DNA of 64,000 bases from Escherichia coli (GCF_024700885.2 NZ_CP117014.1), one strand, 5' to 3'; numbered from the stretch's first letter, positions 288-24,392 are shown. Notes: generated by a model not told the origin, from the letters alone. Numbers and translations: made by a program.

Positions 288-866
288 CTAATTTATCGAT
301 TCAATCGCCATCTGATACAACGTCATTTCATCGGCATTGTGCCGTATGAAATCTGCTTTTCCGCCTATTTTTCCATCAGCATGAACAGGGACCAGCCAGG
401 GATATTGTTCTCGGACCTCGGCTGGCGCTGCGTACTGGTGGTGCCATTTACACAAAGGGAGGACATATTTATGCGCGTTCTCTGCCGTTCTCCCGAAGAT
501 ATGGTGCAGGGATACCACTGGGCTATGTTGCCCGTGAATATGGCAGGCAATGCAGGGGAGAGTACCTATAGCGGTCTGTATCCGGCGTTCATCGGCTGTG
601 AGTGATCTGCCTTTCAGGCCGCGTGACGTGCGTGTTTTTTTGGGCGGAGCGGATACAGCTTTATCTTTTCTCCGCTGTTCATATTGCTTTGCTTTTTCAT
701 TTTTCTTTTGCCGATATTCAGGCGATGCGGCCTTTTCTCTCGCTCGCTGCTGCTGGCGTTGAGCTTGTTGAAGGCGCTTTGCCCTTTGTTCCTCTCGCCA
801 GGCCGGGTCAGCCAATTTTTGCATGGCTTTTTGTCTCTGTTTCTCCCAATAACTCTGTTTCTGCAT
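288..866 (-). CDS. ref: Ref-like HNH endonuclease (recombination enhancement function)
   Basis: 192 aa; Cys/His motifs LPCIACHIHG, SLHHIFGRT, PLCKWHH, APAEVREQYPWLVPVHADG match my recollection of P1 Ref. Confidence 0.65.
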   Translation of the reverse strand: MQKQSYWEKQRQKAMQKLADPAWREEQRAKRLQQAQRQQQRAREKAASPEYRQKKNEKAKQYEQRRKDKAVSAPPKKTRTSRGLKGRSLTADERRIQTAIGTLPCIACHIHGQHSPVVSLHHIFGRTAENAHKYVLPLCKWHHQYAAPAEVREQYPWLVPVHADGKIGGKADFIRHNADEMTLYQMAIESIN

Positions 867-936
867 GATGGCAGTCTCTTACTTTTCAACGATTTTTCTA
901 TGATTGATCAAAACGGTTAGATATTCAAAATTGATT

Positions 937-944
937 TTCTAACA
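937..944 (+). promoter_or_regulatory. Operator-like motif TTCTAACA in the ref promoter region
   Basis: Lies within GTTAGA-N-ATTGATTTT-CTAACAC about 70 bp upstream of the ref start; same motif recurs at about 12 other promoters. Confidence 0.45.
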
Positions 945-1138
945 CAAAACATTAATATCATCACTGATAAATGTTTGGAGGACATGATGCTTATAGCTTT
1001 AAGTGCGATCCACCAGCCATCTGTGAATGAGATTGGCCTGTTCTATGTGTTGTTTTTCGGGGCGTTGGCGCTACTTGAGCTTGGTATTGAGCTTTTCGCA
1101 GTGCTTATGTTTTGCGTCACGATTTTGGGGAAATTTTG

Positions 1139-1750
1139 ATGGTGAAACGTGTTTTGAAAATTTACATCGCGGGGCCGATGACTGGTTATCCAGATTACAA
1201 CCGTGCTGCGTTTAATGCGAAAGCGAGCGAGCTGATGGCTGAAGGGCATATCGTTCTGAATCCAGCTGTGTTACCTGGTGGCCTTTGTCAGAGTGAATAC
1301 ATGGATATTTGCCTGGCAATGGTGCGTTCTGCTGATGCGATCTACTTGCTCAATCGATGGGAGGAATCGATTGGTGCTCGTGCAGAGCACGCGCTGGCTG
1401 AAAAGCTGGGGCTGACTGTAATTTATGAGTCACCAACCAACATTGAATGCCAGGTTGCTCCGCATATTTACCGGGAACTGGTCAATGCACTGCGTGATAT
1501 CGCTGCTGTATATCACGGCACAGAACAGCTTCGTGAGCGTTTAGCCCATACCATTTCCTATTACCTGTCTTTATCTCATGAGCACAAGCTCCGCCAGAAG
1601 GTAATGATCAAATTTATCATGAGGTTATCGAAATCCCTGGCAAACGCCGATCCAAAGAATCCATTACCGAAAGAGGCAATGAATTACCTGAAGTCCTGCA
1701 ACGTTGTTTCTGAAGATGGCGTTCTTTTGGTTAGAAGGAGTTCTGCGTGA
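1139..1750 (+). CDS. DUF4406-like (nucleoside 2-deoxyribosyltransferase-fold) protein with a C-terminal module shared with the 8866-10386 protein
   Basis: KIYIAGPMTGYPDYNRAAF...VLNPA motif; C-terminal PHIYRELVNALRDIA..GTEQLRERL recurs as PHVYRELVNRLHDTA..GTQQLRERI. ATG at 1139 chosen over the upstream alternative start at 1112. Confidence 0.5.
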   Translation: MVKRVLKIYIAGPMTGYPDYNRAAFNAKASELMAEGHIVLNPAVLPGGLCQSEYMDICLAMVRSADAIYLLNRWEESIGARAEHALAEKLGLTVIYESPTNIECQVAPHIYRELVNALRDIAAVYHGTEQLRERLAHTISYYLSLSHEHKLRQKVMIKFIMRLSKSLANADPKNPLPKEAMNYLKSCNVVSEDGVLLVRRSSA

Positions 1751-1779
1751 GCTGGCGGGGATGGGGAAGGGCAGAAATC

Positions 1780-2064
1780 ATGATACTCCGCCAGTGCGCC
1801 GGAACTATGACGGTCGAGAGTATTGGGAAGCTGATCGGTCGTACCGGTGATGCCGTCAGGACTAAAGCGCGGGAGTTGGGGATCAGCATGATTCTGAAAG
1901 GAGACTTTCATCCGTCAGCCAAATTCCGGCAGAGCGATATAGAACTGGCGCGGCAGCTTCATCAGTGTGGTGTTCCCCGCCGTGAGATCGCGGAAAAACT
2001 CGAAATGCCCCTGGGCATGATTAATCAGTACGTTTATTTCGAAAGGAGAGTACATGAAGTCTGA
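1780..2064 (+). CDS. Small putative DNA-binding (HTH) protein
   Basis: ORF; segment TVESIGKLIGRTGDAVRTKARELGI is HTH-like. Start taken at the internal ATG with an RBS. Confidence 0.4.
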   Translation: MILRQCAGTMTVESIGKLIGRTGDAVRTKARELGISMILKGDFHPSAKFRQSDIELARQLHQCGVPRREIAEKLEMPLGMINQYVYFERRVHEV

Positions 2065-2557
2065 AGGTTTAACGCCAGCACAACTGGCAGAGCGTAACGC
2101 TGAGTATGTAACGGAAATTTCCCGACTTGAGAAAGCGTGTGCTGCGCTGGCGGCGGAGAATGCGAGACTGAATGCGATATGTGAGGATCGCCGCACGTTC
2201 ATTATGAATGGCGTGCAGCTTGGCTTTATCAAGGTGCCAACAGTGGAAATAGATCCAGCTCTCGAAACAATTCGTCTCGCCCTATCACCACAAAAAACCA
2301 CTCCTGCGACCGACACTTTCCTGGATGAAGTGAAGACTGAAGCACGCAAGGAGGGCGCTTACTTTGTGGCGAACAGGATGCTGGCTGCTTGGGAAGCTGG
2401 TTTTATTGATGATACTGCGAAGAACGCCGCGGATATTGCCCGGATGATTCTTACCTCTACTGAGTTTATGGCTAATGCGCGGGAAGGCGATTTTGACCGC
2501 TCATTCTCTGATGGCGTTCTCGAAGATATCGCCGAACAGCTTAGAAAAGGAAGGTAA
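2054..2557 (+). CDS. Ead/Ea22-like coiled-coil protein (paralog family member)
   Basis: ACAALAAENARL motif and C-terminal similarity to 5775-6488 (FLDEVKTEARKEGAYF / FLAEIRAEARNEGVNY); RBS AAGGAGAG. Confidence 0.5.
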   Translation: MKSEGLTPAQLAERNAEYVTEISRLEKACAALAAENARLNAICEDRRTFIMNGVQLGFIKVPTVEIDPALETIRLALSPQKTTPATDTFLDEVKTEARKEGAYFVANRMLAAWEAGFIDDTAKNAADIARMILTSTEFMANAREGDFDRSFSDGVLEDIAEQLRKGR

Positions 2558-2560
2558 ACA

Positions 2561-2809
2561 GTGAGTAATACCGCACGACTACAGCTTGGTTTTTCACCGC
2601 TATCAAAAACCATCGTGTTGGCAAAAATGCGTGACTTAGGGGATGGAACAAAACGTCGTGTTGGCAATGATCGCGGTCGTGATGTAACCAACGAGGCCGC
2701 TCAACTCCTCTGGCATCTGGTCATGGCAGAAGGCGGTGAAATTAATTGGGAGCTGGATGATGGTTCTCGCATGGTATTGAAGGCAGAAAAGCAGGAACCA
2801 CCACAGTGA
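2561..2809 (+). CDS. Hypothetical small protein
   Basis: ORF with GTG start and RBS, translationally coupled to neighbours. Confidence 0.35.
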   Translation: MSNTARLQLGFSPLSKTIVLAKMRDLGDGTKRRVGNDRGRDVTNEAAQLLWHLVMAEGGEINWELDDGSRMVLKAEKQEPPQ

Positions 2810-3081
2810 ATATCGACACCACGATAACGCTCGATACGGCCCTAAATACCGGTCTGGCACTTCTTGGTTGGCTTTACATCATGTCCCGTACCTGGCGATG
2901 GCTGGGTTCCATTTTCCTAAAAGAGTGGAAAAAACGGCGCAAACAGGAACTACGCCAGAAGGCATTAGAAGCGTTCTATGACGCATTTGAACTTAGCCGC
3001 ATTGAACCAGGCACAACAGCCAGAATAGCGACAAAAGGCGACCTGATGATAGTGATGTTCAGACAGGAGAAAACCAAATGA
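2806..3081 (+). CDS. Hypothetical small membrane protein
   Basis: ORF with hydrophobic stretch LNTGLALLGWLYIM; overlapping start/stop coupling. Confidence 0.35.
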   Translation: MNIDTTITLDTALNTGLALLGWLYIMSRTWRWLGSIFLKEWKKRRKQELRQKALEAFYDAFELSRIEPGTTARIATKGDLMIVMFRQEKTK

Positions 3082-3302
3082 CAGAACAGACGATGACAAA
3101 TCGCGAACTTGTTGATGCCGCGATTGAACTTGCTGGCGATTTTTATTCCATGATGGGGTACACGCATCGCCCAGGCTTCAAATATTGGGAGTCTCCGCAC
3201 CCGCAAGAGCAACGGGTATTTCAAATGGCCTGCCGCGCTTTTGAAGTTATTCGCGGTTCTGATGTGATGGACGCGGTTGCTGATTTGGAGGATGAAGAGT
3301 GA
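3078..3302 (+). CDS. Hypothetical small acidic protein
   Basis: ORF with ATG and RBS AGGAGA; coupled to neighbours. Confidence 0.35.
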   Translation: MTEQTMTNRELVDAAIELAGDFYSMMGYTHRPGFKYWESPHPQEQRVFQMACRAFEVIRGSDVMDAVADLEDEE

Positions 3303-3610
3303 ACACAATTAAAGAAATGCCGGTAGAACGTGATGAATATGGCTGCTGGACACATCCGGAGTATGAGAAGTTTTGCGCAGGTCGTGAATATATTTCCACT
3401 GAGGAATTTGACGCCTGGATGAAGGAAAATAATCTTCAGTGGACTATTCGCAGTATGGATGAAGATGATTTTGATCTGGACGCAGCTGGTCCCGATATTG
3501 CCGCCTGGGAACCGGAGCGACCAGAGGGTGAAGGCTGGTTTGTTGGCTCTATTCATGACACTGAAGATGGTCCGGTTTGTATCTGGCTGCGTGAGAAGGT
3601 TGCCGCATGA
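3299..3610 (+). CDS. Hypothetical small acidic protein
   Basis: ORF with GTG start and RBS GGAGGA. Confidence 0.35.
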   Translation: MNTIKEMPVERDEYGCWTHPEYEKFCAGREYISTEEFDAWMKENNLQWTIRSMDEDDFDLDAAGPDIAAWEPERPEGEGWFVGSIHDTEDGPVCIWLREKVAA

Positions 3611-3767
3611 CCCAGGCTCTGCATGAAGTGAATTTATATAGCCGTATTGATGGTTCTGGCTATAGAAACTAGACACGGGCGCGGTTTTTAGCGGAAATCT
3701 GACGCTAATGCAGGTGAAGGGAGGGCAGCTTAAAGTCTGATCAAATCATTTACGCACTCAAAATCAC

Positions 3768-3796
3768 GTTAGAACATTGATTTTAGTTTTCTAACA
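3768..3796 (+). promoter_or_regulatory. Operator-like inverted repeat GTTAGAA-N14-TTCTAAC overlapping a putative promoter
   Basis: Perfect 7-bp inverted half-sites 45 bp upstream of the 3839 start; contains the recurrent TTCTAACA motif. Confidence 0.45.
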
Positions 3797-3838
3797 TATT
3801 ATTTTACCGATCGGAACAAAACAGAGTCGGTATGCATT

Positions 3839-4834
3839 ATGAGTGCAATAATCACCCCATATGTCGTAAATGAAACTGGTGTGGCTGTCTTTCCTGTAGA
3901 TAAGCCCACCAGCAATTACATCGGCGCAGGACGCCGTTTTCTTATATCCCCATTGCCGCGTGAACAGGCTGAAAACACCCCTGATGGTGTCGTTGACCTG
4001 AATTATTCACTGGTTGCCAACCAGTCACTGGCACCCTTTTTTCAAAGTGAGCGCGTATTTAACGCGTTAGGTGGTGAGGATTCTCTCGTTCACTGGGTTA
4101 GCACCAACATTCACGATTGCCAGGTGCATGATAAGCGCGATTGCAGCCACCAGCTAACCACCCATTTCTATAACGGTTCTGCCGTTCGCCTGTGCTGGAA
4201 GCATGATGCGGAATACATGATGAAGGGATACGGCAAGCTGGAAGACCAACTGTCACTGAATCGCGCCAACTGGATTATGAACTGGGCTGCCAGCGAGTTA
4301 AAACTTCCGCCAGATCGCGATCTGAGCATGGTTGAACTCACCTTTTGGGCCATTCGCCGGAATCTTAAAGACGAACTGCCTGATGAAGCTGGTCGCATTG
4401 CATTTTGTCAGCCAAAAACTGAAATCCCTACCGGCACTCTGAAAGAGTCGGATATTACTTGGGAGCATAGTACCCGCGAGCTGGTGGATATTTCCGCAGA
4501 GCAGATCGTCAATCTGTCCGTCGATGAAGATTCTGGCCTCCTATATATGCGCCGTCCAAAAACCTTACTCGGAAAAAGCCCGGCTTATCTCCGGTTTGTG
4601 GTGTCTCGCCCGTGTGTAGGCTGCGGCGGCAAGGTTAATCACCCATTCATGTACCGCGCCCGCTCGTTAAACGAACACGACCGCTGGACTGTTCCTCTTT
4701 GCGATGACTGCGCCAGAAGCGCAGAAAACGATGTCCGGGCATGGGAAAAAGCACATGGCATACGCCTTTACGTAGCCGCTAACCAGCTTTTCGACTTCGC
4801 CATTGAGCGCGGAGTGATCACGTTCAATAACTGA
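3839..4834 (+). CDS. DUF968-like / HNH-like Cys-His protein
   Basis: 331 aa; C-terminal CVGCGG...HPFMYRARSLNEHDRWTVPLCDDCAR resembles the Ref-type Cys/His cluster. Confidence 0.5.
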   Translation: MSAIITPYVVNETGVAVFPVDKPTSNYIGAGRRFLISPLPREQAENTPDGVVDLNYSLVANQSLAPFFQSERVFNALGGEDSLVHWVSTNIHDCQVHDKRDCSHQLTTHFYNGSAVRLCWKHDAEYMMKGYGKLEDQLSLNRANWIMNWAASELKLPPDRDLSMVELTFWAIRRNLKDELPDEAGRIAFCQPKTEIPTGTLKESDITWEHSTRELVDISAEQIVNLSVDEDSGLLYMRRPKTLLGKSPAYLRFVVSRPCVGCGGKVNHPFMYRARSLNEHDRWTVPLCDDCARSAENDVRAWEKAHGIRLYVAANQLFDFAIERGVITFNN

Positions 4835-4847
4835 TGGGAGCAATGCA

Positions 4848-5141
4848 ATGAGTCAAGGTAATGGTGACGGAGCTGCAAAGTGCAGAATCTCCACTTGTTT
4901 GATTAATGACAAAAAAATAGAACCGTGCGCGGCGTTGGCACAATCTCTGGAGAAGGATGCTGAATACACGACGCGGAAAGGTCTGCTGAAATACAAAATC
5001 TATAACCATGAATTAATTCATTCACAAGACCTGATCATGCTGCGGTCTGGTGAATTTTCTAAATCGCCTATTCGAGTTTCATTTTGCCCATTCTGTGGTG
5101 AAAGTCTGAAAACGTGGGAAGCGGAGGCAACCAGTGAATAA
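4848..5141 (+). CDS. Small Cys-rich protein with C-terminal zinc-ribbon-like CPFCGE
   Basis: ORF with ATG and RBS; CxxC pairs. Confidence 0.35.
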   Translation: MSQGNGDGAAKCRISTCLINDKKIEPCAALAQSLEKDAEYTTRKGLLKYKIYNHELIHSQDLIMLRSGEFSKSPIRVSFCPFCGESLKTWEAEATSE

Positions 5142-5778
5142 CCGCTTTTACATGATGTGCTTGCGTGAAACTGTGGGTAATAACGCCTCATTCCATTGCC
5201 ATAACGGCAATGGTTACAGTTCTGATATCGATCGCGCTCATATTTACACGCTGGAAGAAGCCCAAAAAGCCTGGAATTGTGGGCGAGATATCGATCAGCC
5301 TGTTTGTGCCGATAGTGTGGATGCAATGGCTGTGTGGCACGTTGATTGCCAGTACATCCCTACAGAAAGCCTGATTGAGTCAGATTGCACTGAGTATGTG
5401 GCCTACAAAAAAGGTAGCTGGAACGGCAACGATGTTTACTGGCTTCAACACGGTGGATTGCCAACAGATGACTTCAGTAAAGCGACCATCTTTAGCTTCG
5501 CCAACAAAAACGAACCAGGAATAGTTTGGTTGCCATTTTCCATTGCTGATGCAGCAAAGCGCCGGACGTTCAATATCAATAACTTTAACCGCAGAACAAT
5601 GGTTCAGGGCGCAGGTTTGGTCATGCCTGACTGGTTGAAAGAGCAGAACAGAAGAAAGAAGTCGCGAAGCGGGAAGGTGCGTTGGAATTGTCCGCATTGC
5701 GGAAAAATAACCTGGCAGTACAGCCCATATGATTTTGAAGGCTGTCGTGATTACAACTGTGAAGGATGGCGAGAATGA
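5134..5778 (+). CDS. Hypothetical protein with C-terminal zinc-ribbon-like motif
   Basis: 214-aa ORF; WNCPHCGK...CEGW near the C-terminus; start uncertain (GTG 5134 or ATG 5152). Confidence 0.35.
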   Translation: MNNRFYMMCLRETVGNNASFHCHNGNGYSSDIDRAHIYTLEEAQKAWNCGRDIDQPVCADSVDAMAVWHVDCQYIPTESLIESDCTEYVAYKKGSWNGNDVYWLQHGGLPTDDFSKATIFSFANKNEPGIVWLPFSIADAAKRRTFNINNFNRRTMVQGAGLVMPDWLKEQNRRKKSRSGKVRWNCPHCGKITWQYSPYDFEGCRDYNCEGWRE

Positions 5779-6488
5779 CAATTGACTATCAGGTACTGCG
5801 TGAGGCGGCAGAAAAGGCAACACCAGACGAATGGGTCGCATTTATTTCGACGGATACTGGTACTTATGCGGTGCACACGCCCGGTGATGAACGATGTGAA
5901 GACGTTATCAAATGGACCGGCTTTGATGGACAGAAAAATGCAGAGAACAACGCTCGTTATGTTGCCGCGTTCAACCCAAAGGTTGCACTGGAGCTTCTTG
6001 GTGAAATTAAGCGCCTGGAGGACACAAATATTGATGCTATGTGTCGAATTGCAGAGCTTGAGACTAATCTCGCGGCGCTGGCGGCGGAGAATGAACTGGC
6101 TCGTAAGGCAGTTCAGGCATTCTGCGATGTTGTTGGCGACAACACCGAGGTTATCGCTGAGGAGGTTGGGCGAGATGGCGTTCTGGTTATTTTGGAGGCC
6201 ATGAAGGCAACAGGAAATATGCCAGCCACCGATGCTTTTCTGGCTGAAATTCGTGCGGAAGCACGCAACGAGGGAGTTAACTATACCGCCAGCCGTCTTG
6301 CTGCTGCGTTCAATCACGGATTTATCAATAAGTCTTTGCGTGAAGTTTTCGACGTTACACGCATGATTTTGTCAGCGAAAGAAGAGTTGGCTAATGAAGC
6401 GCATCCGATTGATGGCCTGTCTGGTGAATATGCGGAGAAATCCCTTGAAGAATGGGCGGAACAGATTCGCAAAGGAGCTGACAAGTGA
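5775..6488 (+). CDS. Ead/Ea22-like protein (paralog of 7423-8178 N-terminus and 2054-2557 C-terminus)
   Basis: N-terminal MTIDYQVLREAAEKAT...AAFNPKVALELL matches 7423 ORF (MSKINYQALREAAEKAT...AAFNPKVALALL); LAALAAENE coiled coil. Confidence 0.5.
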   Translation: MTIDYQVLREAAEKATPDEWVAFISTDTGTYAVHTPGDERCEDVIKWTGFDGQKNAENNARYVAAFNPKVALELLGEIKRLEDTNIDAMCRIAELETNLAALAAENELARKAVQAFCDVVGDNTEVIAEEVGRDGVLVILEAMKATGNMPATDAFLAEIRAEARNEGVNYTASRLAAAFNHGFINKSLREVFDVTRMILSAKEELANEAHPIDGLSGEYAEKSLEEWAEQIRKGADK

Positions 6489-6895
6489 AGAAGATGATTT
6501 TTATCGCGGCATTGTTGGTGAATATCCAACAAGTGCATGCTTCAGCAGCTATTGTAGCCTCTACCGCCGCGACTACGGCTGCTGTAGCTGCTGCGAACTC
6601 TGCGAATATCGCAAACCAACAGGCACAGCGTGCTGCTAATGCATCAGCCAGCGTTCACTCAATCACCATTAAGAGCAGTAAGCAAAATCTGGGATTCATA
6701 ACGTGCGGCACGCGTTCTAATGAAGCTGTAGGTTCACTTGGATGTACGGTATATGGGGGTAGTGAGAATAGAGAAATTCCATGGAAAACGTGGCCCGGAT
6801 ACGTTCTTGGCTCGAAGCTCCCGGCCAGTTATGAAGTAAACGCCGTATCGTTTGATCACTATAACGGCGTGGCAACGGTCTATTTTGCATATTGA
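6485..6895 (+). CDS. Small secreted/periplasmic protein (signal peptide)
   Basis: N-terminal MKKMIFIAALLVNIQQVHA followed by an Ala/Thr-rich region; no lipobox cysteine. Confidence 0.4.
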   Translation: MKKMIFIAALLVNIQQVHASAAIVASTAATTAAVAAANSANIANQQAQRAANASASVHSITIKSSKQNLGFITCGTRSNEAVGSLGCTVYGGSENREIPWKTWPGYVLGSKLPASYEVNAVSFDHYNGVATVYFAY

Positions 6896-6902
6896 GGCCC
6901 GC

Positions 6903-7436
6903 ATGAAATTCTCCAAATTTTCTGAGTTGGTGAATCGTATTTTGTTGAATCGTATTTTGTCCAACAACCACAGCCATCGTCGCGATATGGATGTAACGAT
7001 CGTTGTTCATTCGCCTGGCAGCATTGGTTCAACACCCTCAGTTGAGGTTCAGTCAATTCACGCTGGTTTTGATTGGGATTCCGGGAAAGTGCTGATTTTC
7101 CCAGCACAGCCACTGACCACTCTAACACCAGAACAGATTACTGATATTACTGATAGTGTGCGCAAAGGTCAGTCCTGGCACGCATATCAGGAATACAAGA
7201 AGCATAAAGAGCAGTTGGAAAAATTATCGATTGAACTTGATACCGCAAAACAGCGCATTGCAGAGCTGGAGAGCAATCGCGCGGCGCTGGCGGCGGAGCA
7301 TGGTATTCAGATTGCAATAAATGAACTGCTTGCTCTGGCCCCGCGTCTGGATAAACGAGCGGTGGATGCACTCTCTGTGGCTGTGGAGCACCTGTGTAAA
7401 CTGATTAAGAAGGAGGCAGTCAGTGAGCAAAATTAA
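6903..7436 (+). CDS. Ead/Ea22-like coiled-coil protein
   Basis: ELESNRAALAAEHG motif; ATG at 6903 with RBS chosen over the upstream alternative start. Confidence 0.4.
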   Translation: MKFSKFSELVNRILLNRILSNNHSHRRDMDVTIVVHSPGSIGSTPSVEVQSIHAGFDWDSGKVLIFPAQPLTTLTPEQITDITDSVRKGQSWHAYQEYKKHKEQLEKLSIELDTAKQRIAELESNRAALAAEHGIQIAINELLALAPRLDKRAVDALSVAVEHLCKLIKKEAVSEQN

Positions 7437-8178
7437 TTACCAGGCACTGCGTGAGGCGGCAGAGAAAGCAACGTGGGGAGACTGGGACTCATATAAACCA
7501 CACCGTGGCGCACGTGGTTATAAGGTCCGACTAAGTGGTCAGGCCATTGCGCAACACGTTCTGAAAAACAACGCTGAATTTATTGCTGCCTTTAATCCAA
7601 AGGTTGCTTTGGCATTACTGGATGAACTGGAAAGAAACCAGCAATACATCAAACGCCGCGACCAGAAGAACGAGGATATTGCTCTTACGGTTGGGAAGCT
7701 GAGAGTTGAGCTTGAGGAAGTAAAACAACACGCTGAAGAATTATCCGAAACCAAGGCTGTTCGTAACCAATGGCGGCCAGATATTTGCCCAATAACCGGA
7801 CGTGCATTTTTCATGTGGATTGAGCATCCAACATTGGGAAATGTGCCGACATATGGTGGCCCATTAGATAGTTACACCATTCCAACAAAGGACGGTGACG
7901 GTGAGTTTTCATGTGAGCGTTACGATCATGATTTTGGCGGTTGGGTAGAAAGCGAATGTCTTGGGTTATATCTGATTGATGATAGAGAACAATGCAGGGT
8001 CTACGAACTGGAGGAGCGCGTTAAGGAACTGGATGCTCGGGAAATATCGCTCCCGGAACGTAGCAGCATGCTTCATCGAACAGATTTTCACGATGATTAC
8101 CAAACGGTAATGGCATACAAAGTTTCTGAAGTCATCGATGCAATCCGCGCTACTGGCATTCGCATCAAAGGAGAGTGA
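7423..8178 (+). CDS. Ead/Ea22-like protein
   Basis: GTG start with RBS AAGGAGG; N-terminal paralogy to 5775-6488. Confidence 0.45.
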   Translation: MSKINYQALREAAEKATWGDWDSYKPHRGARGYKVRLSGQAIAQHVLKNNAEFIAAFNPKVALALLDELERNQQYIKRRDQKNEDIALTVGKLRVELEEVKQHAEELSETKAVRNQWRPDICPITGRAFFMWIEHPTLGNVPTYGGPLDSYTIPTKDGDGEFSCERYDHDFGGWVESECLGLYLIDDREQCRVYELEERVKELDAREISLPERSSMLHRTDFHDDYQTVMAYKVSEVIDAIRATGIRIKGE

Positions 8179-8179
8179 G

Positions 8180-8590: not shown

Positions 8591-8591
8591 T

Positions 8592-8855: not shown

Positions 8856-8865
8856 GGAGTAACAC

Positions 8866-11706: not shown

Positions 11707-11727
11707 TATTATTGAGGTGAAAACGCT

Positions 11728-13384: not shown

Positions 13385-13385
13385 A

Positions 13386-13415
13386 AAGAAGCCCGCTCAA
13401 CCAGGCGGGCTTCTT
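13386..13415. terminator. Bidirectional rho-independent terminator between convergent doc and 13420 gene
   Basis: AAGAA-GCCCGC-tcaaccag-GCGGGC-TTCTT hairpin with flanking A/T runs. Confidence 0.55.
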
Positions 13416-13419
13416 ACTA

Positions 13420-15271: not shown

Positions 15272-15277
15272 GTCAAA

Positions 15278-15718: not shown

Positions 15719-15732
15719 AGTCTTTTCTCTGC

Positions 15733-16706: not shown

Positions 16707-17041
16707 CCCCTTGCAGGATATCGACCGGCATTAGTATCCGGTGCAATAAAGCCGGTAGTGGGGCGAGTGAAAGCGAGATTAATCTTCTCGACCATAGTGC
16801 GATAATTTTCCTGATAGTGGGCCAGGAGTTTTTCGGCGGCAATGATGGTTACTTTCCGGACGTAGCTTTCTGCTTCCTCCAGATTTCGCCAGTTTTTTTC
16901 GAGGGTAAACACAGGGACGGCCTCAAGCCCGGTCATGATGCCGAACACAACGACAGCATGACTGTTCTTAACACCAGCGGCGAAGGTTACGGTGTAACCA
17001 TCCACCTTGAAGCGTCTTGATTCCGTGATTTGACTCTGCAA
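16697..17041 (-). CDS. Hypothetical 114-aa protein, first gene of the operon (P1 c8 position)
   Basis: ORF preceded on its upstream side by the TGTTAGAA operator-like motif at 17099-17106. Confidence 0.35.
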   Translation of the reverse strand: MQSQITESRRFKVDGYTVTFAAGVKNSHAVVVFGIMTGLEAVPVFTLEKNWRNLEEAESYVRKVTIIAAEKLLAHYQENYRTMVEKINLAFTRPTTGFIAPDTNAGRYPARGCR

Positions 17042-17098
17042 AGCACCCTCCTAAATAGGCGAGGGTACTTTACAGCAAAGGCGTTAATCTAAAAAGAT

Positions 17099-17106
17099 GT
17101 GTTAGA
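17099..17106 (-). promoter_or_regulatory. Operator-like motif (TGTTAGAA) upstream of the 17041-13420 operon
   Basis: Same motif family as 937-944 and others. Confidence 0.4.
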
Positions 17107-17114
17107 AATTTAAT

Positions 17115-18143
17115 TTACGAATCCATCAGGCGGCTATTAGCCCCCACAGACACGCCGCCACGGCGAAGATACCGCATAAGTGTTTCCGGTTTCTTCCAGG
17201 TTCCTTCCTGCATGATCTCCACCATAGACACCTGCTTTTCAGCCATATCAATAGCGGCCCCGACGCGTGCACTATGCCCGGTCCACGTCCGGTATCTTCC
17301 TTTGTTTGGCGTAGCATCTCTTTTATTCAGCAACACCCAGGCGTCGCTGAATATTTTCTCCATTGCAGGTGCAGTAAGGGGCGTTGTCGTGATCCTGGCC
17401 TTATTGCTACGGTGTATCGGCGGGAACAGCACTGCGTCAGGATGTTCGCGAAGCCCGGAAACATCCAGCCAGTCATTCAGCACAGCGGTAGTGCGACGGG
17501 AAAGCACCTTATCAAGCCCGGCGGCGGTCGTTATTGTCTTCGTGTGTGAAATATGTAGCGTGACAGTGTCACCTGTTTGATCCAGATCTCCTACACGAAT
17601 ACGCGAGATTTCCGACATACGCATCAGCGTATTGTATGCAACAAAGAGAAAAGCCCGGTTGCGCAGGTCCACCAGCCGTTCTGACCTGGACAACAGGACG
17701 TCGAGCAGTTTCAGATCGTCCCACCGAAGCGGTATAGCCTGGCCTGTTCGTTCGCCTTTTTCAGTTGCCGCTTCGCGCCGGATGCGCCGCATAGCCAGAG
17801 AAACACTTTTATCATCCGAAAGTGGCGGAAGGCCACAATGCGAAAGCAGCATATTCAGCATGGCGTAGTGCTTATCAATGGTGGTCGAAGCCAGATCGGC
17901 ATCATGCAGCTGAAGAAAATACTCGCGGGCCATTTCTGGTGAGATCGGAAACCAGGCAAGCTGGCGAGCGTGACACCAGCGCGCCCATGAATGAAACACC
18001 AACCGGAGGTCGCGCAGAGTATTCGGCGCATAAGCCCCCTGGTCATTCATGAACCGCATAAAGTTTTCTGCAGCCTCCTGGTACTCTTTGCCAATGTTGC
18101 GCAGAAAACCACCGGAGCTGCCAGAGATAATTAATTCACTCAT
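17115..18143 (-). CDS. dre: Cre-family tyrosine recombinase (Dre-like)
   Basis: 342 aa; AVSLAMRRIRRE, AYNTLMRMSEISRIRVGDL, WTGHSARVGAAIDMA parallel recalled Cre (AVSLVMRRIRKE, AYNTLLRIAEIARIRVKDI, WSGHSARVGAARDMA) at roughly 40% identity; adjacent rox-type site. Confidence 0.85.
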   Translation of the reverse strand: MSELIISGSSGGFLRNIGKEYQEAAENFMRFMNDQGAYAPNTLRDLRLVFHSWARWCHARQLAWFPISPEMAREYFLQLHDADLASTTIDKHYAMLNMLLSHCGLPPLSDDKSVSLAMRRIRREAATEKGERTGQAIPLRWDDLKLLDVLLSRSERLVDLRNRAFLFVAYNTLMRMSEISRIRVGDLDQTGDTVTLHISHTKTITTAAGLDKVLSRRTTAVLNDWLDVSGLREHPDAVLFPPIHRSNKARITTTPLTAPAMEKIFSDAWVLLNKRDATPNKGRYRTWTGHSARVGAAIDMAEKQVSMVEIMQEGTWKKPETLMRYLRRGGVSVGANSRLMDS

Positions 18144-18295
18144 GAAACTATTTAACCTCTATATACAGATAACGCTACGCGAAAAATATAAAAATGACAG
18201 GGTAGCTATAAGTTAATTTTCAAGATTCAAGCCTTTGATTCGAGGCGCGTATTTTCAGTGATGTCAATACTGATCATCTACCCATAATTATAGCC

Positions 18296-18327
18296 TAACT
18301 TTAAATAATGCCAATTATTTAAAGTTA
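18296..18327. other. rox-type recombination site (14-bp inverted arms, 4-bp spacer GCCA)
   Basis: TAACTTTAAATAAT-GCCA-ATTATTTAAAGTTA, perfect arms; arm begins ATAACTT-like as in loxP; 150 bp upstream of the recombinase start. Confidence 0.8.
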
Positions 18328-18426: not shown

Positions 18427-18521
18427 TTTTCTAAAATTGATGACAAAAAATCACAGTTCGATCCTTTACTCACTCTGTTATTCGACATAAATTTGTCATA
18501 GTAATTTTATGTTAGAAAACT
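18427..18521 (+). promoter_or_regulatory. Two operator-like motifs upstream of the 18538 gene
   Basis: TTTTCTAAAATTGATGAC at 18427-18444 and TGTTAGAAAACT at 18510-18521. Confidence 0.4.
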
Positions 18522-18537
18522 AAATCGAGTAGGAATA

Positions 18538-19575
18538 ATGAGTAAGAAGTCGATCGAGAAAGAGTACAAACGGTTCCTGCAAACCGCTGAACGGTGGAAA
18601 GAGCTGGTGGTCGCAAACTCTGTTTTCCATGATACCAGTTATGCTGGCGAGGAATTCCGCCATGTTGCATTAACGCATGACCAAAACATATTAGAAGAAG
18701 CTGAAAAATGTCTTGCTGAATGGAAAGCCTTCGTTGACATGTGCCGCGATGCCGACGGCAAAGCGTCGAACATTGTTGAGTCTGTATATTCTCCGATCCC
18801 ATTCATCATTGAGGACACCAATCAAAGCACGCATGTCGTTGTGCAAAGCGCTACAACAACACGTACATTTACACGTGAACAATTGCTAAAAAAATACGAC
18901 AAAATCATAAAGAAAAGCCTTAAAAATAGGGTTTTTTCTCAAATCGTAGGTGATCTTGAAGAAGAACAGCGCTTCTTTGAAGCTGAGCCTGAAGGCGAGA
19001 TCTACCGGGCGCGTAAAGAGGCATATACAGATGTTGTGCTGACAACAAACATCGAAGGCAGCAATGCCCTTTCTCGCTTTAGAGTTGGCGCACATGGTGC
19101 ATTGGTTTTCGCAAGACTACCGAAGACAACGATCCCCGTTGTCAATAATGTTGGTGAACGCCGGAGCATTACAATTTATTCTGGCGTCGAATCGGTACCT
19201 TGCAGCCTTCTCGGCGATTTTAACTTATATCGTGTTCGTGACCTGGAAAAACACCAGCCAAGCTATGTTGCGAAGTCGTACATCTTAAGGAACATCGATA
19301 TTCGCAATGAAAGCCTTAAGCAGAAATCCGCTAAGATGCTGGAGGATGCCGATCCGGCTATTCGCCATATCATTGAGCGTAAGATACGTACATCACGTGA
19401 AGCAATGGCAAGGCTGGATAAAATGGATCTGGAATTGTTAGACGTAATGATGGCCTCTGGAGACGACCTGACCGGCATTAAACTGAATGAAGCTCGTAAA
19501 AAATACGGCAAAGCAATCGAAGAACGTTACGGATACACATTCCCCCAAACGCAGTACGCCGCGAAGCTCTGGTAA
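18538..19575 (+). CDS. Hypothetical 345-aa protein, candidate immunity repressor (C1 position)
   Basis: Lies between pacB and the rox/recombinase, transcribed opposite to pac as c1 is in P1; two operator-like motifs upstream. No sequence match to C1 verified. Confidence 0.35.
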   Translation: MSKKSIEKEYKRFLQTAERWKELVVANSVFHDTSYAGEEFRHVALTHDQNILEEAEKCLAEWKAFVDMCRDADGKASNIVESVYSPIPFIIEDTNQSTHVVVQSATTTRTFTREQLLKKYDKIIKKSLKNRVFSQIVGDLEEEQRFFEAEPEGEIYRARKEAYTDVVLTTNIEGSNALSRFRVGAHGALVFARLPKTTIPVVNNVGERRSITIYSGVESVPCSLLGDFNLYRVRDLEKHQPSYVAKSYILRNIDIRNESLKQKSAKMLEDADPAIRHIIERKIRTSREAMARLDKMDLELLDVMMASGDDLTGIKLNEARKKYGKAIEERYGYTFPQTQYAAKLW

Positions 19576-19584
19576 TCACAACCG

Positions 19585-19604
19585 GCCCCGCATCGCGGGG
19601 CTTT
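19585..19604. terminator. Bidirectional terminator between convergent 18538 gene and pacB
   Basis: GCCCCGC-atc-GCGGGGC followed by TTT. Confidence 0.5.
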
Positions 19605-21111
19605 ATATATCCAGATCCGGCATTTCGATATCCGCCAGAACCTGATCTCGGAAAGTTGCCATTTCGGCACCAATATCTTCATTAGCAGGCACATAGTCCA
19701 CCAGCATAGTGAAGCAGTAGGTATCCCATCGGTCAGGCGATTTGATGTTTAGCTTTTGCCGCATGTGCTCTTTGCGCATCATCGCCATTTTCCCTTCTTC
19801 ATTCAGTAAAAAGGGGATTTTTGACGCTTGCTCTGCCGTTTTAGGGTCACTGTCTATCCGCATACGCCCTGACTTTATGGCATCACGCGCCATAATGTTT
19901 GCGTAGGCACGCTGATTAACAAATCGCTCCCTGTCTTTGTTCGCAAACATGGGTTTTCCCCACCGAATACGTACCGGGTTCGCACCACGACGCACCAACT
20001 GCGCACACGTATCAGAACCAAAACCATCAGCATCAACCGCGATTGTTATATTCGGGTATTTTTCCGGCGTACATTCGTTATATATGAAGTCAGCAAAGGC
20101 CAATGGGTCCATAGTGCCAGGCATCTCCATTACCTTAAAGTTAACAACGCGCCGCTTATCCCTGTGACCTGATACCTTGCAGATGTTGAGGACCGACTTA
20201 TCTCGCCCATTACCAACGTCAGCCGTTGCCACCCATCCCCAGTTTTTCTCCAACAACACCTTGCGGCGAGCAGAGCGATCGCATTCATCACGACCAAGCA
20301 AATAGCCGTTAATTTCTCGTGGGAACTGACCAAGCACCTTGACCATGTACTCAATAGAATCGCGCCCACCATATTCCAGAAGCTTCTCCTTGATGAATTG
20401 TGGTGTGACGAACGGTGATTCTTCCGAGTTAAGAACAATTGCTGTCCAGATCCCTTTCGGGTTGTCTGGGGTTTTTGCTCGAGAATGGTGCGAATCGTAG
20501 AAATAACCACTTGGCCTTGTTGGCTGGGATAGCATCAACATCCGGTTATCTTCTTCAGTAAGAGCACCGGTCATTACGCCGATCGCCTTATCAGATATAC
20601 CAGATGCTTCATCCAGAATTAGAAGCAAATGTGCCGCGTGTTCCCCCGCCAGCGCTTCTTCGTTGCCGAGTCGATAACCTTTGCAGAGAACTTCCCAAAT
20701 CCCCTTACGGGAGCGCTCATAAAACATGGTGTCAGAGAGGACAAAATAGGTCTGCAACCACCCATGACGCTTAACTGCATTCGCCCAATACTGTTTAACG
20801 TATTTGAATACGCCTGTTTTTACCTGGCCTATCTTGTTAGCAACAATGATGACACGGGCATCGGGGAACAGGATCATAAAAATCAACAGCAACATCGCGG
20901 TAAGGGACGACTTCCCCGTTCCGTGTCCGGACGTGACGGTCGTCCTACTCCCCGTTTCCTGCACTGACTGAATGATCTGCTGCTGCTGGTGGGAGGGGAA
21001 CATCCCAAAAATATCGACTACAGCCTGGGTAAAGTTGTAGCGGTATTTGATTACCATATCGCGCCAGCGTGGATCGCTGGTGACGCATTTAATCTTGCGC
21101 CCGCCAGCCAT
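19603..21111 (-). CDS. pacB: Terminase large subunit (PacB-like)
   Basis: 502 aa; Walker A SGHGTGKSS, Walker B LLLILDEAS; downstream of pacA with overlapping stop/start. Confidence 0.75.
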   Translation of the reverse strand: MAGGRKIKCVTSDPRWRDMVIKYRYNFTQAVVDIFGMFPSHQQQQIIQSVQETGSRTTVTSGHGTGKSSLTAMLLLIFMILFPDARVIIVANKIGQVKTGVFKYVKQYWANAVKRHGWLQTYFVLSDTMFYERSRKGIWEVLCKGYRLGNEEALAGEHAAHLLLILDEASGISDKAIGVMTGALTEEDNRMLMLSQPTRPSGYFYDSHHSRAKTPDNPKGIWTAIVLNSEESPFVTPQFIKEKLLEYGGRDSIEYMVKVLGQFPREINGYLLGRDECDRSARRKVLLEKNWGWVATADVGNGRDKSVLNICKVSGHRDKRRVVNFKVMEMPGTMDPLAFADFIYNECTPEKYPNITIAVDADGFGSDTCAQLVRRGANPVRIRWGKPMFANKDRERFVNQRAYANIMARDAIKSGRMRIDSDPKTAEQASKIPFLLNEEGKMAMMRKEHMRQKLNIKSPDRWDTYCFTMLVDYVPANEDIGAEMATFRDQVLADIEMPDLDI

Positions 21112-22475
21112 TAATCATCCTCCGGCGGTTCTATCGCGATATCATCATCTCCGGCGTCATACCCTGCATCAGATGCATCATAATCACCGTAAATTTCAGC
21201 CGTTGCCGAAGGGTCAATATCCAGCTCTTCGTCGTTGGCCTCGAATTCTCCAGCTTTACGCTCGCCATTGCGGTCGTAATCTCCGCACCCCAATTCTTCA
21301 ACAATGGTTGCCACATCCGCCCGGCGCTCTGCCAGCCATTGCGGATGGTTAGCCTGAAGCGTTGCAAACTCCCTTGCCTCTTTGTCCAGCTGTTCATCAT
21401 CAACATCATTGACGTCAGAAACAGGTGGTTCGAGAAGAGTGATAGCTTTCGCCGCGCGCGCCGCGAGGATAGCCGGGACGCTGACACCCTGGCGCTCGAT
21501 GTATTCAGCAACACCGATATCATCCAGTTCCTCGCGCTCACGCATACGTATAGCGGCGGCGATAACTCTGGCTGCGCGTGCGTCAGCGCCAATGCGATAT
21601 TCAATCTCTTTGCCACGCTGTTCGGCCTGTAGGCGTGCTAATTCGAGTTTTTCTCTGGCCTCAGCCTCTTTGAATGCTTGCTGGCGAGCGCTCTGACGAA
21701 GCTTTTCATCCCCCTGTCGCAGCTTTTGTTCGGACTGATATATAGCTGCCAACCTACTGATAAAATCATTCATGTAGTAGGCCGCGTCACTGATTAGACC
21801 GAGAAGGCGCTGCCCAGGGTGCATTCCTTCTGGCTCTTTATCGCCCAAGGCGTCTATTTCCGCCTGTAGACGTTCGGCCTCCTGATCAACAATGCTTTGA
21901 TACTGAAGTGCGCGCTCTTGCGCCATTTGAATTGCTAACCGCAGGTGTTCTTCTGCGCCGTTCTTCATCATATCGCGAGCCACATTCGTAGTTGGCAATG
22001 TGGCACGCTGCACAGCACCGTCAGGGATCATTGCAGAAGATCCCTCAATTTTTGGGGCGTTTTTATCTTCTTCGGGGATCATTTTCGCCATTTTTTCGCG
22101 CAATGATCTCCTGACAGATTCTTTTATCTCATTGTTATTATTTGAATTATTTTCATGATCCGAAGTTTTCTTTCTCGGCATACTTCGGAAAGAACCTGCG
22201 CCCTGCGAATTGTCAATTTCTGTAAATTTTGTTTTTTCTGCACCCTCTTCCAGCTTTTTTGTTGCTCTTCCCGCCCGTTTTTTTTCAGGTGATTTGGTGC
22301 TTTTTTTTGTTGTCTTTACCTGCGACCGCACCTCATTTTTTTTCATATTGAGATGCTTTCTGGCTGTATTGAAGCTAAGGCCATGCTCCTCACAGTATTC
22401 CTTTACAGTGATCCCTTTTTCTTCACGCAACGCTATAAAGCGGGCGCGGTGCTCCTCCCAATTAACCAGACTCAT
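21111..22475 (-). CDS. pacA: Terminase small subunit (PacA-like)
   Basis: 454 aa, N-terminal HTH-like and Lys/Glu-rich region; position immediately upstream of pacB; GATC cluster inside. Confidence 0.6.
   Translation of the reverse strand: MSLVNWEEHRARFIALREEKGITVKEYCEEHGLSFNTARKHLNMKKNEVRSQVKTTKKSTKSPEKKRAGRATKKLEEGAEKTKFTEIDNSQGAGSFRSMPRKKTSDHENNSNNNNEIKESVRRSLREKMAKMIPEEDKNAPKIEGSSAMIPDGAVQRATLPTTNVARDMMKNGAEEHLRLAIQMAQERALQYQSIVDQEAERLQAEIDALGDKEPEGMHPGQRLLGLISDAAYYMNDFISRLAAIYQSEQKLRQGDEKLRQSARQQAFKEAEAREKLELARLQAEQRGKEIEYRIGADARAARVIAAAIRMREREELDDIGVAEYIERQGVSVPAILAARAAKAITLLEPPVSDVNDVDDEQLDKEAREFATLQANHPQWLAERRADVATIVEELGCGDYDRNGERKAGEFEANDEELDIDPSATAEIYGDYDASDAGYDAGDDDIAIEPPEDD
22026..22160. 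other. Candidate pac site (cluster of Dam GATC hexamers inside pacA)
   Basis: Five GATC sites within 135 bp (22026, 22039, 22077, 22105, 22157), far above chance; P1 pac is a cluster of TGATC(A/G) elements inside pacA. Confidence 0.35.
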
Positions 22476-22864
22476 AAAGCAACACCACGCTTTTTAACGG
22501 CGGCATTCCACAGCTTATTCGCCATGTCCACCAGCTCTCGTTGCTCTTTTCGCGCCTGTTCGACTGATTTCCTGCTACAGTTTTTAACCAGTAAACTGCC
22601 ATATTCAGGGGTTCGCCCACGCACCTTGAACTGATATCCGTTCAGGCCATGCAACCAGTATTTTCGTGGGTAAACACGATCATCAAGCTCACAGATTGCC
22701 CTGCTTGAACGAACAAAATGACGAATGATGTTAGTTACACTTACTCGTGAAACATGGAGATGAGGGTATTTTTCTTTGGCGAGAGTGGTAATTTCAGTGA
22801 CTGTCAGATAGCAGTCAGCCCTGATCATGATATCCGCAATTTCTGCGCTGCTGATTTGTTCCAT
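22472..22864 (-). CDS. Hypothetical 130-aa protein, positional analog of late-promoter activator Lpa
   Basis: Immediately upstream of pacA as lpa is in P1; operator-like motif TATTAGAA at 22941-22955 upstream. Confidence 0.3.
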   Translation of the reverse strand: MEQISSAEIADIMIRADCYLTVTEITTLAKEKYPHLHVSRVSVTNIIRHFVRSSRAICELDDRVYPRKYWLHGLNGYQFKVRGRTPEYGSLLVKNCSRKSVEQARKEQRELVDMANKLWNAAVKKRGVAL

Positions 22865-22972
22865 TAATCCCCCGGGCAGGAAATGACCGAGGGGATGATA
22901 ATGAGAATGTTAAAACTGTATAGACTGGTAAAAAGATGAATGTATTAGAAAATTAATACTAAATATCTAATG

Positions 22973-23365
22973 CTACCAGCTAGACAAACGAACAACATGT
23001 TTCACTTTTGCGATCCACTGTCCGCGATAACTATTGATTACGGCCTGTGCCAGCTTCAAATTGGCTTCAAAATCAGCCTTACTACCATCAGACTCCACCA
23101 GCATTCCTCCATCTATTTCTGGTAAACATAGATAATCCTGCTCAACCTGCAGCGGCATTGATGGCTCTCTGAATGGGGTTACTTGCTCTGCTTTCCAGCG
23201 AAATCTAACCCTTATCCCCCTGGTGGTCATTACTAGATAGCCTGTTATAGTGCTTTTATGGCCCACATCAGTACGCGTGGCATTGCATGACTCGATCTTA
23301 CAGTTAGCGATAGACCACTCCATATTGGTGGCCTGTTGAGTGCTTAATTTGGTAGTCCCGTACAT
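22973..23365 (-). CDS. Hypothetical 130-aa protein
   Basis: ORF coupled with the upstream 191-aa gene. Confidence 0.3.
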   Translation of the reverse strand: MYGTTKLSTQQATNMEWSIANCKIESCNATRTDVGHKSTITGYLVMTTRGIRVRFRWKAEQVTPFREPSMPLQVEQDYLCLPEIDGGMLVESDGSKADFEANLKLAQAVINSYRGQWIAKVKHVVRLSSW

Positions 23366-23940
23366 CAGAAAGCCTCCCAGTCAGTCGCGATAATATCCAC
23401 ACCAGTTGCAAACCAGTCTGTCTGCGCCTGTAAATCCCCATTCATCATTACCAGGCGAGGCATCACCATCACATCGCACCCTTCCACAATATCGAATGCC
23501 TCTTCCGGCAAGAATTCGAAGAGCTTTTCTTTGCTGCCAATACTGCCACGGAACATCGATATATAGCTCCCTTTGGGCCATGATGTCCGCCGGGCATCAA
23601 GCCCTTTCATCATCCAGTAAAAAGCCGAGGAAAAAGGGATATTCTTTTTGCCAATGATTACATTATTCGCTTCTGTGTATTTCAGGAACTTAACTAACCT
23701 TACCATTGACTCGGATAACGCAACGTATGGCTCATGATTGATTGCTGACACGCTTACACCGTGCAATCCAACGCTTACCACTGTCATATCGCCGCTCTGT
23801 GCGGTTTCGATATTGACGCCTTTGCGAACTAATGAGGCGTAAATTTCCTCTCGCTTTTGGGTCCAGCGTTCACGCTTCCCTATGAAGTCACTCAAAATGA
23901 GATCTTCTTCTGTATATGCGTTATCGTTCGCCATTAACAT
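23365..23940 (-). CDS. Hypothetical 191-aa protein with a possible DUF2829-like C-terminal region
   Basis: FYWMMKGLDARRTSWPKGSYISMF ... TDWFATGVDIIATDWEAF loosely parallels the 15278 ORF pattern. Confidence 0.3.
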   Translation of the reverse strand: MLMANDNAYTEEDLILSDFIGKRERWTQKREEIYASLVRKGVNIETAQSGDMTVVSVGLHGVSVSAINHEPYVALSESMVRLVKFLKYTEANNVIIGKKNIPFSSAFYWMMKGLDARRTSWPKGSYISMFRGSIGSKEKLFEFLPEEAFDIVEGCDVMVMPRLVMMNGDLQAQTDWFATGVDIIATDWEAF

Positions 23941-24392
23941 AACGTTTCCTTTTTTACACGCGCGACTATCCCCCGGAAGTACCGGTAGTGATGTCGTAAC
24001 TTCGTATTAATTAAGGGGTACAGCCTGAGCGGCTATATGATGAATTGAAAGGAGTTGTGGCGGTGGTGCCTCCACCTGCCAGGTTAGCCACTCCTGGCGA
24101 CGTCACTTATCAGAACGTAGTGAATGAAAATGGCTTCGTCACGAGCGCATAGCCGCAATTACCACAACGGAAACGGCGCTCACGCTAATTAAACGCCTTT
24201 TCCTGTTGTGCGCCGTGCTCTTCCGGCTGTCACACCGAATCGCCAGGATGGTGAATCCGCAGTCCGACGCTATGAACGGGGCTTGCACATTCCGGCTACC
24301 TGGTGTGCCCATGCAGTGTTAGTAAAAGGTACCTAACAGCTACACCAGACCGCTAACGACGCATGTGCCATACGCCGTGTTACAACCAAATG

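Follow-up and report, generated by a model that had tools for sequence, protein, structure and literature searches.

The window examined here, a 64,000-nucleotide (nt) stretch of Escherichia coli NZ_CP117014.1 analysed at its full length, is by its sequence a D6-type phage-plasmid, with nothing unusual for that known family. Its lpa-pacA-pacB-c1-recombinase-ref block, which reads backward relative to phage P1, belongs to a larger segment whose reversal is most parsimoniously placed in P1: one inversion on the P1 branch, after its split from Cronobacter phage JK004, with the window keeping the ancestral state. An original prediction had instead described the block as inverted and expanded relative to P1. 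For the analysis, the window and the full records of D6 (NC_050154) and P1 (NC_005856) were compared by blastn and tblastn.

Escherichia phage D6 was the top phage record for window positions 1-24000 (megablast against phage records), and a blastn nucleotide dot plot, the check proposed against P1 and D6, found D6 and the window collinear end to end and P1 and the window not, so that the relative inversion stands. The D6 alignment consisted of 12 collinear blastn blocks that covered ~49 kb of the 64 kb (~77%) at 92-98% nt identity, with one block at 82%, and that placed window 1-18311 against D6 75703-91159 and window 18312-63702 against D6 1-45508. Only two non-collinear matches were present, both weak and paralogous (~69-74% identical). 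At the amino acid (aa) level, Dre, C1, Lpa, PmgS, PmgM, and Ulx were 100% identical to their D6 counterparts, and PacA and PacB were each 99% identical. The organization was common to ~110 complete plasmids, roughly 90-96 kb in size, from E. coli, Salmonella, and Shigella, and the nearest database records were complete circular plasmids of 89-96 kb. The assignment to the D6 family is based on the collinearity, the matching key proteins, the rox site described below, and the organization shared with these ~110 plasmids. The window arrangement is therefore not new, being that of the published D6 genome (NC_050154/MF356679), with which a detailed comparison of P1 and D6 also came out, according to PMC6799933. 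What is possibly new is confined to the polarity of the inversion and a candidate operator motif.

Orientation relative to P1 was called by searching the window and D6 with the complete set of P1 proteins (tblastn). Six genes, namely ref, the recombinase gene, pacB, pacA, and lpa (minus strand) and c1 (plus strand), lay opposite to their P1 strand and in reversed order, as had been proposed from the reading of lpa-pacA-pacB-c1-site-recombinase through to ref as P1-like from right to left. The P1 order and strand were kept by ulx and darB, the first genes rightward to do so, by hxr-ddrB-ddrA-darA-hdf-lydB-lydA, and by S-R-16-bplA-pmgA-sit-pmgB. A P1-like left-to-right order had also been claimed from lxc, ulx, and darB through to cin, S, sit, and pmgB; this held for ulx, darB, and S to pmgB, found no support for lxc, and failed for cin and the darB-ddrB interval. 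Specifically, the 86-aa open reading frame (ORF) at 29387-29647 that had been called lxc had no detectable similarity to Lxc or PmgL, and Lxc was not detected in D6-like genomes (PMC6799933). The cin gene (51150-51698) was on the strand opposite to that of cin in both P1 and D6, and the darB-ddrB interval was not P1-like, in that c4/icd/repL were translocated and inverted and pro-prt was inverted.

The limits first given to the block, 288-24000, proved too narrow. When the genes of D6 and of the window were mapped with their strands, all homologous core genes lying between 26 and ulx proved to be flipped relative to P1 (mat, ref, cre, c1, pacB, pacA, lpa, tciAB/plp, pmgS, and pmgM), as were the homologues of isaA and simB, which are located elsewhere in P1. 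The D6 flip extended left beyond the window start, via a second icd copy, to mat, which abuts tail gene 26. The flipped segment comprises everything between 26 and ulx, corresponding to ~31 kb in D6 and ~19.7 kb in P1 (pmgL-lox-mat). Its left boundary, 26/mat, falls beyond the window, at ~70.98-71.31 kb of D6, and was seen both in D6 and in p702_18_3, the nearest plasmid, while the right junction, pmgM/ulx, was present in the window at 29251-29649 (minus strand) and holds the 86-aa ORF. The tRNA array and ORF-poor region, earlier placed at the junction, turned out to be a separate relocated module inside the segment. The P1 gene order (26/pmgL, with pac-c1-lox-cre-ref-mat opposite to the tail genes) was not found in the window, where the segment is on the other strand.

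Which genome flipped was addressed by mapping P1 and D6 proteins on further genomes, one for each non-P1 lineage. JK004, whose core proteins were 70-86% identical to P1 and whose gene set includes cra, c8, coi, lxc, pmgL-Q, and parAB, had 26(-) followed by mat ref c8 cre cra(-), coi c1(+), then pacB to pmgL(-), and finally lxc ulx darB(-), with the minus-strand run in full being pacB pacA lpa pdcB humD pmgU pap pmgS through to pmgL. By blastn, P1 and JK004 were collinear but for one clean inversion (P1 78684-94402 plus 237-3344) with its internal order intact and with breakpoints at P1 78466/78684 and 3344/9907, the EcoP1I res-mod genes and IS5 occupying the latter (3344-9907). The corresponding breakpoint region of JK004 includes 69921-70663, and an lxr-like gene sits between 26 and mat in this phage. 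The Citrobacter freundii plasmid NZ_CP056338 had 26 mat ref cre(-), c1(+), pacB pacA lpa(-), lxr(+), pmgS-R-Q-P-O-M(-), and ulx darB(-), so that its segment was an exact mirror of that of P1, including the opposite strand of lxr. In Aeromonas hydrophila plasmid NZ_CP121796, genes 5, 6, 7, 25, and 26(-) adjoined mat(-) ref(-) c8(-), followed by a cre-like gene(-), by pacB(-) pacA(-), and by pmgM(-). Vibrio cholerae pE7G had pacB, the cre-like gene, 26, 25, and others in the D6 relative order and strand, with nearly all genes co-directional. As for other elements, the PacB of Xanthomonas phage Rb1 was 33% identical and was considered as an outgroup, and in the 50 kb around PacB of a Spartinivicinus plasmid the annotated genes adjoining the terminase were not recognizably P1-like, with a serine recombinase following the terminase.

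These maps bear on whether a single inversion occurred at all. Both gene orders could have arisen piecemeal, by modular shuffling through many illegitimate recombinations, and several rearrangements relative to P1 would fit such a history: D6 and the window have the c4/icd/repL and tRNA/plp modules translocated, the humD cassette in another place, and both prt-pro and hrdC-dmt inverted, and cassettes have clearly been exchanged horizontally. We nevertheless consider this origin of the segment improbable, given that P1 and JK004 differ by exactly one clean inversion in which the inner order is wholly kept, and that the C. freundii segment mirrors that of P1 down to the strand of lxr. Modular shuffling explains the accessory cassettes and not the backbone flip.

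A neighbor-joining tree was built from 20 core proteins (5,614 ungapped columns, 500 bootstraps), with the root assumed to be at the most divergent genome, that of Vibrio. The topology was (Vibrio,(Aeromonas,(D6,(C. freundii,P1)))), and both the P1 and C. freundii grouping and the broader group of these two with D6 were supported in 500/500 bootstraps. P1 was the sole tip with the other orientation. The window had been cast as the rearranged genome; because four other lineages share its orientation and P1 is the only exception on the core-protein tree, the change is placed on the P1 branch. In all examined lineages having mat except P1, gene 26 was preceded immediately by mat, with both on one strand, and the P1 inversion would thus have parted mat from the tail genes 26-25-7-24-6-5, which are downstream of it on the same strand elsewhere. 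Apart from the segment, prt-pro shared the strand of the structural genes in the window, D6, Aeromonas, and Vibrio but not in P1, JK004, or C. freundii, where it was on the other strand; this pattern points to an earlier inversion, a second one, among the genomes on the P1 side of the tree.

The converse polarity, in which the D6 lineage inverted, P1 keeps the original order, and the window is flipped with an expanded ref-to-lpa region, has in its favor that P1 is the reference genome and that the comparison is symmetrical, so that the window and D6 set against P1 alone cannot tell direction. However, the orientation of D6 and the window recurs in JK004, C. freundii, Aeromonas, and Vibrio, of which JK004 and C. 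freundii are closer to P1 than they are to D6, and an inversion in the D6 lineage would need at least three or four independent identical inversions, or a reversal; we regard it as very improbable. Several points count against our placement of the inversion on the P1 branch. We infer the polarity by parsimony on a rooted distance tree, and it depends on that tree and on the Vibrio rooting; the Vibrio plasmid is without mat and ref and is informative for the order 26-cre-pacB only; each non-P1 lineage is represented by one genome; the left junction is beyond the window and was examined in D6 and related plasmids only; and no repeat, microhomology, or recombination site was found at either P1 breakpoint.

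Junction probes were used to count how often each arrangement occurred. The P1-type 26/pmgL junction was contiguous in 488 of 571 matching plasmids, and no D6-type arrangement matched; the window-type pmgM/ulx junction was contiguous in 111/111 matching plasmids, and the D6-type 26/mat junction in 112/116. No long inverted repeat involving the right boundary was found within window 1-31000, and inverted matches between one P1 breakpoint and the other did not exceed 11 nt, which is at chance level. When the P1 junctions were compared by short-word blastn with D6, the window, C. freundii, and Aeromonas, only chance-level matches were likewise returned, and the junction DNA of JK004 and P1 was unalignable, with no similarity. 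As judged from these junction counts and from the lack of repeats at the boundaries examined, each orientation is fixed in its own lineage and the segment is not a switch. These phages do have genes for a tyrosine recombinase and for a serine invertase (cin), and in P1 the use of secondary (quasi-cix) sites by Cin has been reported, yet a programmed reversible switch worked by Cin, Dre/Cre, or inverted repeats, with the window and P1 as its two states, is extremely unlikely in view of the fixed orientations, the absence of such repeats at the window right boundary and the P1 breakpoints, and a single rox site that lies within the segment rather than at its ends.

Of the block genes in the window, the left-most, ref (288-866, minus), encodes a RecA-dependent nuclease (Pfam RecA_dep_nuc, E=2.6e-34) whose aa sequence is 97% identical to that of D6 Ref and 55% identical to that of P1 Ref. 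The recombinase (17115-18143, minus) is a Cre-like tyrosine recombinase with a Pfam Phage_integrase domain, identical to D6 Dre (100% aa) and 41% identical to P1 Cre. A single 32-bp rox site, TAACTTTAAATAATGCCAATTATTTAAAGTTA, was read from the sequence at 18296-18327, adjoining c1; it coincides with the D6 rox half-sites (91144-91159 and 1-16) and agrees with what we take to be the published rox sequence. The c1 repressor gene (18538-19575, plus) is of D6 type (100% aa) and just 21% identical to P1 C1 over 268 aa (E ~1e-6). The packaging genes pacB (19603-21111, minus) and pacA (21111-22475, minus) are 56% and 21% identical to those of P1, respectively, and the late-promoter activator gene lpa (22472-22864, minus) is 31% identical. 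At the right-hand end of the segment flipped relative to P1, pmgS (26923-28131, 21% to P1 PmgS by tblastn), a pmgR-like gene (28245-28559), and pmgM with a VRR-NUC domain (28756-29250, 57% to P1 PmgM by tblastn), all on the minus strand, were 98-100% identical to D6 (26923-29250). Beyond the boundary, ulx (29650-30084, minus; 46% aa) and darB (~30121-36957, minus; 43.5% aa) have the P1 strand.

The segment also appears to contain its own regulatory sites. A 17-mer, TTAGWTTTCTAACAYAT, was present in nine copies in the window, as compared with 0.02 expected by chance (275-291, 3783-3799, 17097-17113, 18507-18523, 22940-22956, 26907-26923, 28156-28172, 39101-39117, and 40302-40318). These sites were at the ref 3′ end, directly downstream of dre, directly upstream of c1 (18507-18523), to the left and to the right of pmgS, and upstream of lpa, c4, repL, and the DUF968 gene. 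D6 had eight copies, and none were present in P1, JK004, or the C. freundii, Aeromonas, and Vibrio plasmids. The P1-type C1 operator, ATTGCTCTAATAAATTT, showed the reverse distribution, with no window matches at ≤3 mismatches, 17 in P1, and 18 in JK004. Several positions of the 17-mer match those of P1 C1 operators (Omat, Oref, Olpa, OpmgR, Oc4, and OrepL), and P1 also has operators upstream of c1. This makes TTAGWTTTCTAACAYAT a candidate D6-type C1 operator. The joint proposition, that TTAGWTTTCTAACAYAT is the D6 C1 operator and that P1 is the rearranged genome, with one recent ~20 kb inversion carried by ~490 P1-type plasmids, is tentative, and we would put it at somewhat below an even chance.

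Since the segment carries regulatory sites of its own, it is probably neutral which way it faces in the genome as a whole. The lpa-pacA-pacB-c1-rox-dre cassette is conserved as a unit, which would keep the spacing from the packaging genes to the cyclization site whichever way the segment faces: pacA is 2.8-4.1 kb from rox, and the P1 pac site is 4.0 kb from lox. A search of the window pacA for clusters of P1-type pac hexamers (TGATCA/G) turned up none, only one such hexamer being present. Across the window, GATC sites were densest in the 5′ part of pacA (22021-22221), with five in 200 bp as compared with an average of 0.75, and this cluster, ~3.8 kb from rox, is a possible pac site. With a pattern made of the -22 box and -10 of 11 annotated P1 late promoters, we found four weak hits in the window and none at the junction; late promoters of D6-type elements probably differ from those of P1, given the low identity of Lpa to its P1 homologue.

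The interval between ref and the recombinase was 16,248 bp in the window and 610 bp in P1, where it holds one gene (c8), which bears out the proposed difference in size, about one gene against about 16 kb. Most of it is filled by an accessory island on the plus strand (1112-13384; Pfam annotation), beginning with genes for DUF4406 (1112-1750), DUF4752 (2806-3081), and a DUF968/PdcB-like protein (3839-4834). The ppp phosphatase gene of D6 is cut to an 18-aa remnant in this region (3669-3722), D6 80052-80612 being missing. Lambdoid-like Ea22 genes, as had been suggested, followed at 5766-6488 and 7423-8178 (both plus; Pfam Ead_Ea22, E=3e-20 and 9e-30), within an ea-region cassette of Stx-prophage type (5123-8991, plus) that was 97.4% identical at the nt level to the Stx2c-converting phages LC645408 and LC645426. 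A 506-aa ORF with a PmgT/U-like end lies at 8866-10386 (plus). Where the region of this ORF begins, small ORFs have been duplicated in tandem, as indicated by internal direct repeats at 8138-9245: one is 139 nt long (86% identity), and several others measure 24-34 nt (74-93%).

Next in the island is a P1-type humD-phd-doc cassette (11577-13384, plus; 94-96% nt identity to P1 and D6). It comprises a LexA box, CTGTATAAATGAACAG (11691-11706), humD (11728-12117, plus; 95% aa to P1 HumD; Pfam S24), a 140-aa ORF inserted between humD and phd (12252-12674, plus), and phd and doc (12783-13384, plus; Phd 100% and Doc 91% aa to P1; Pfam PhdYeFM and Fic). An inverted humD-phd-doc module had been expected in the gap; the module is there, on the strand it has in P1, and is inverted only with respect to its present neighbors. 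The pdcB-like and pmgT/U-like sequences are on the P1 strand as well. Because the cassette has 94-96% nt identity to P1 amid block core proteins that are 21-57% identical, its sequence marks it as a unit recently exchanged between P1-type and D6-type elements, not one inherited and inverted in place. The 16-kb gap is neither an in-place expansion nor an in-place inversion.

The remainder of the gap is on the minus strand, and the gene set from 13420 to 17041 is also annotated in plasmid p702_18_3. It starts with a paralogue of the PacB N-terminus (~13420-14517; ~365 aa), residues 104-356 of which align at 37% identity with the first 264 residues of the PacB encoded in the same window; it lies in a ~1.1-kb insertion absent from D6 (13374-14531), had no Pfam hit, and is annotated in p702_18_3 as a 364-aa hypothetical protein. 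An IsaA-like gene (14504-15271), a Tad2-like gene (15278-15718; 146 aa; Pfam Tad2-like, that is, Thoeris anti-defence 2-like, formerly DUF2829, E=6e-23), a dUTPase gene (15733-16227), which adjoins the Tad2-like gene, and two ORFs without assigned function (16224-16706 and 16697-17041) complete the set.

Relative to D6 the island is mosaic, and parts of it match P7 and SJ46 at ~95% among phage records. It is a patchwork of D6-type genes, P7/SJ46-type genes, and Stx-prophage ea-region genes, the content of which varies by cassette among D6-type plasmids. In JK004 and C. freundii the ref-recombinase gap is ~2.5-3 kb, and accessory genes are located between lpa and pmgS, mostly on the strand of the pac genes, including humD (JK004), pdcB (JK004), and lxr homologues. 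The Aeromonas plasmid has an 11-kb gap with an unrelated plus-strand cargo block. These varied contents across lineages argue that the gap behaves as a cargo hot spot in several of them.

Other differences lie outside the core block. The tRNA array in the ORF-poor region (24393-25687, minus) encodes Met(CAT), Ser(TGA), Thr(TGT), Tyr(GTA), and Arg(TCT) tRNAs according to ARAGORN, and Rfam recovers four of the five. The tRNA/plp module (24.2-26.2 kb) corresponds to P1 68.9-71.2 kb (84-89% nt by blastn), relocated and inverted. As compared with the D6 tRNA set, the window has Tyr and Arg(UCU) in place of Asn: in the tRNA-Asn homologue the acceptor and T arms are kept and the D and anticodon arms are replaced, giving the anticodon TCT (Arg), and an extra tRNA-Tyr is inserted between this homologue and tRNA-Thr. 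The D6 tRNAs are on the minus strand by ARAGORN and on the plus strand in the RefSeq record. The D6 genes tciA and tciB (D6 6282-6877) are absent, their site corresponding to window 24608-24645. The window cin was 69% identical at the nt level to D6 cin, its product had 73% identity to P1 Cin, and the tail-fiber (S/U) segment beside it was replaced relative to D6 (region 51047-55154); the cin/tail-fiber region is the most variable among D6-like plasmids (PMC6799933). The C4 antisense RNA with its a1b1 target (Rfam), icd, and repL are located between darB and pro-prt, unlike in P1 (38803-39008, 39172-40050, and 40404-42939, minus).

Taken together, the best explanation of the whole, which we hold with considerable confidence, is a D6-type element in the ancestral orientation, a single inversion on the P1 branch, and an island built from cassettes. 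The run from ref through dre-rox-c1-pacB-pacA-lpa to pmgS-pmgM would then stand in the standard D6 orientation, ancestral for the wider P1-related group, and the P1 difference would be one ~20 kb inversion (pmgL through lox to mat in P1 coordinates) that arose after divergence from phages such as JK004 and is now fixed in P1-type plasmids. With its own controls, namely c1, lpa, the pac-to-rox packaging and cyclization cassette, and lineage-specific 17-mer sites, the segment could work in either orientation. The 16.2 kb ref-dre gap would be a variable accessory island on the opposite strand, its swapped cassettes shared with P1/P7-type phage-plasmids (humD-phd-doc) and lambdoid/Stx prophages (Ea22 region).

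P1 would thus be atypical for this segment, and differences in gene order from P1 should not be read as rearrangements of the query genome. The window arrangement is normal for D6-type phage-plasmids. Elements of this type occur commonly in E. coli, Salmonella, and Shigella, and a reference genome for them has been published. If P1 is indeed the rearranged genome, and if this has not already been described, the reading of the reference P1 map would be revised family-wide. The ref-recombinase gap, for its part, is a cargo hot spot in D6-type elements, with cargo that includes lambdoid early genes and a Tad2-like anti-defence domain along with functions for addiction (phd-doc) and SOS mutagenesis (humD), while the dispersed 17-mer is a testable candidate for the D6 immunity operator.

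Among known systems, D6 (NC_050154/MF356679; Gilcrease & Casjens 2018) and D6-like plasmids such as pYU39_89 have the same gene order and strands as the window throughout. The window differs from D6 in that island cassettes are swapped at 2172-2804, 5137-9538, and 10648-11659 (blastn), in the inserted PacB N-terminal paralogue, and in cin and the tail-fiber segment. P1 (NC_005856, Punavirus) has a homologous backbone at 21-57% aa identity, in which the lpa-pacA-pacB-c1-site-recombinase-ref module is preserved as a unit and humD-phd-doc is nearly identical; it differs in the opposite orientation of the mat-to-pmgM/pmgL segment, in having Cre/lox where the window has Dre/rox, in the res-mod genes at one breakpoint, in prt-pro on opposite strands, and in the placement of immI/repL elsewhere. 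JK004 (MZ188976) and the C. freundii plasmid pRHBSTW-00697_3 (NZ_CP056338) have the segment oriented relative to 26 and ulx-darB as in the window, although both are on the P1 side of the tree and JK004 has P1-type operators. The P1 C-segment (Cin/cix) is likewise a DNA inversion in the same phage family, but it is a switch of 4.2 kb that lies between cix sites and next to its invertase gene and that is met in both states within one population, whereas the segment described here measures 20-31 kb, shows no detectable repeats at its ends, and occurs in one state per lineage.

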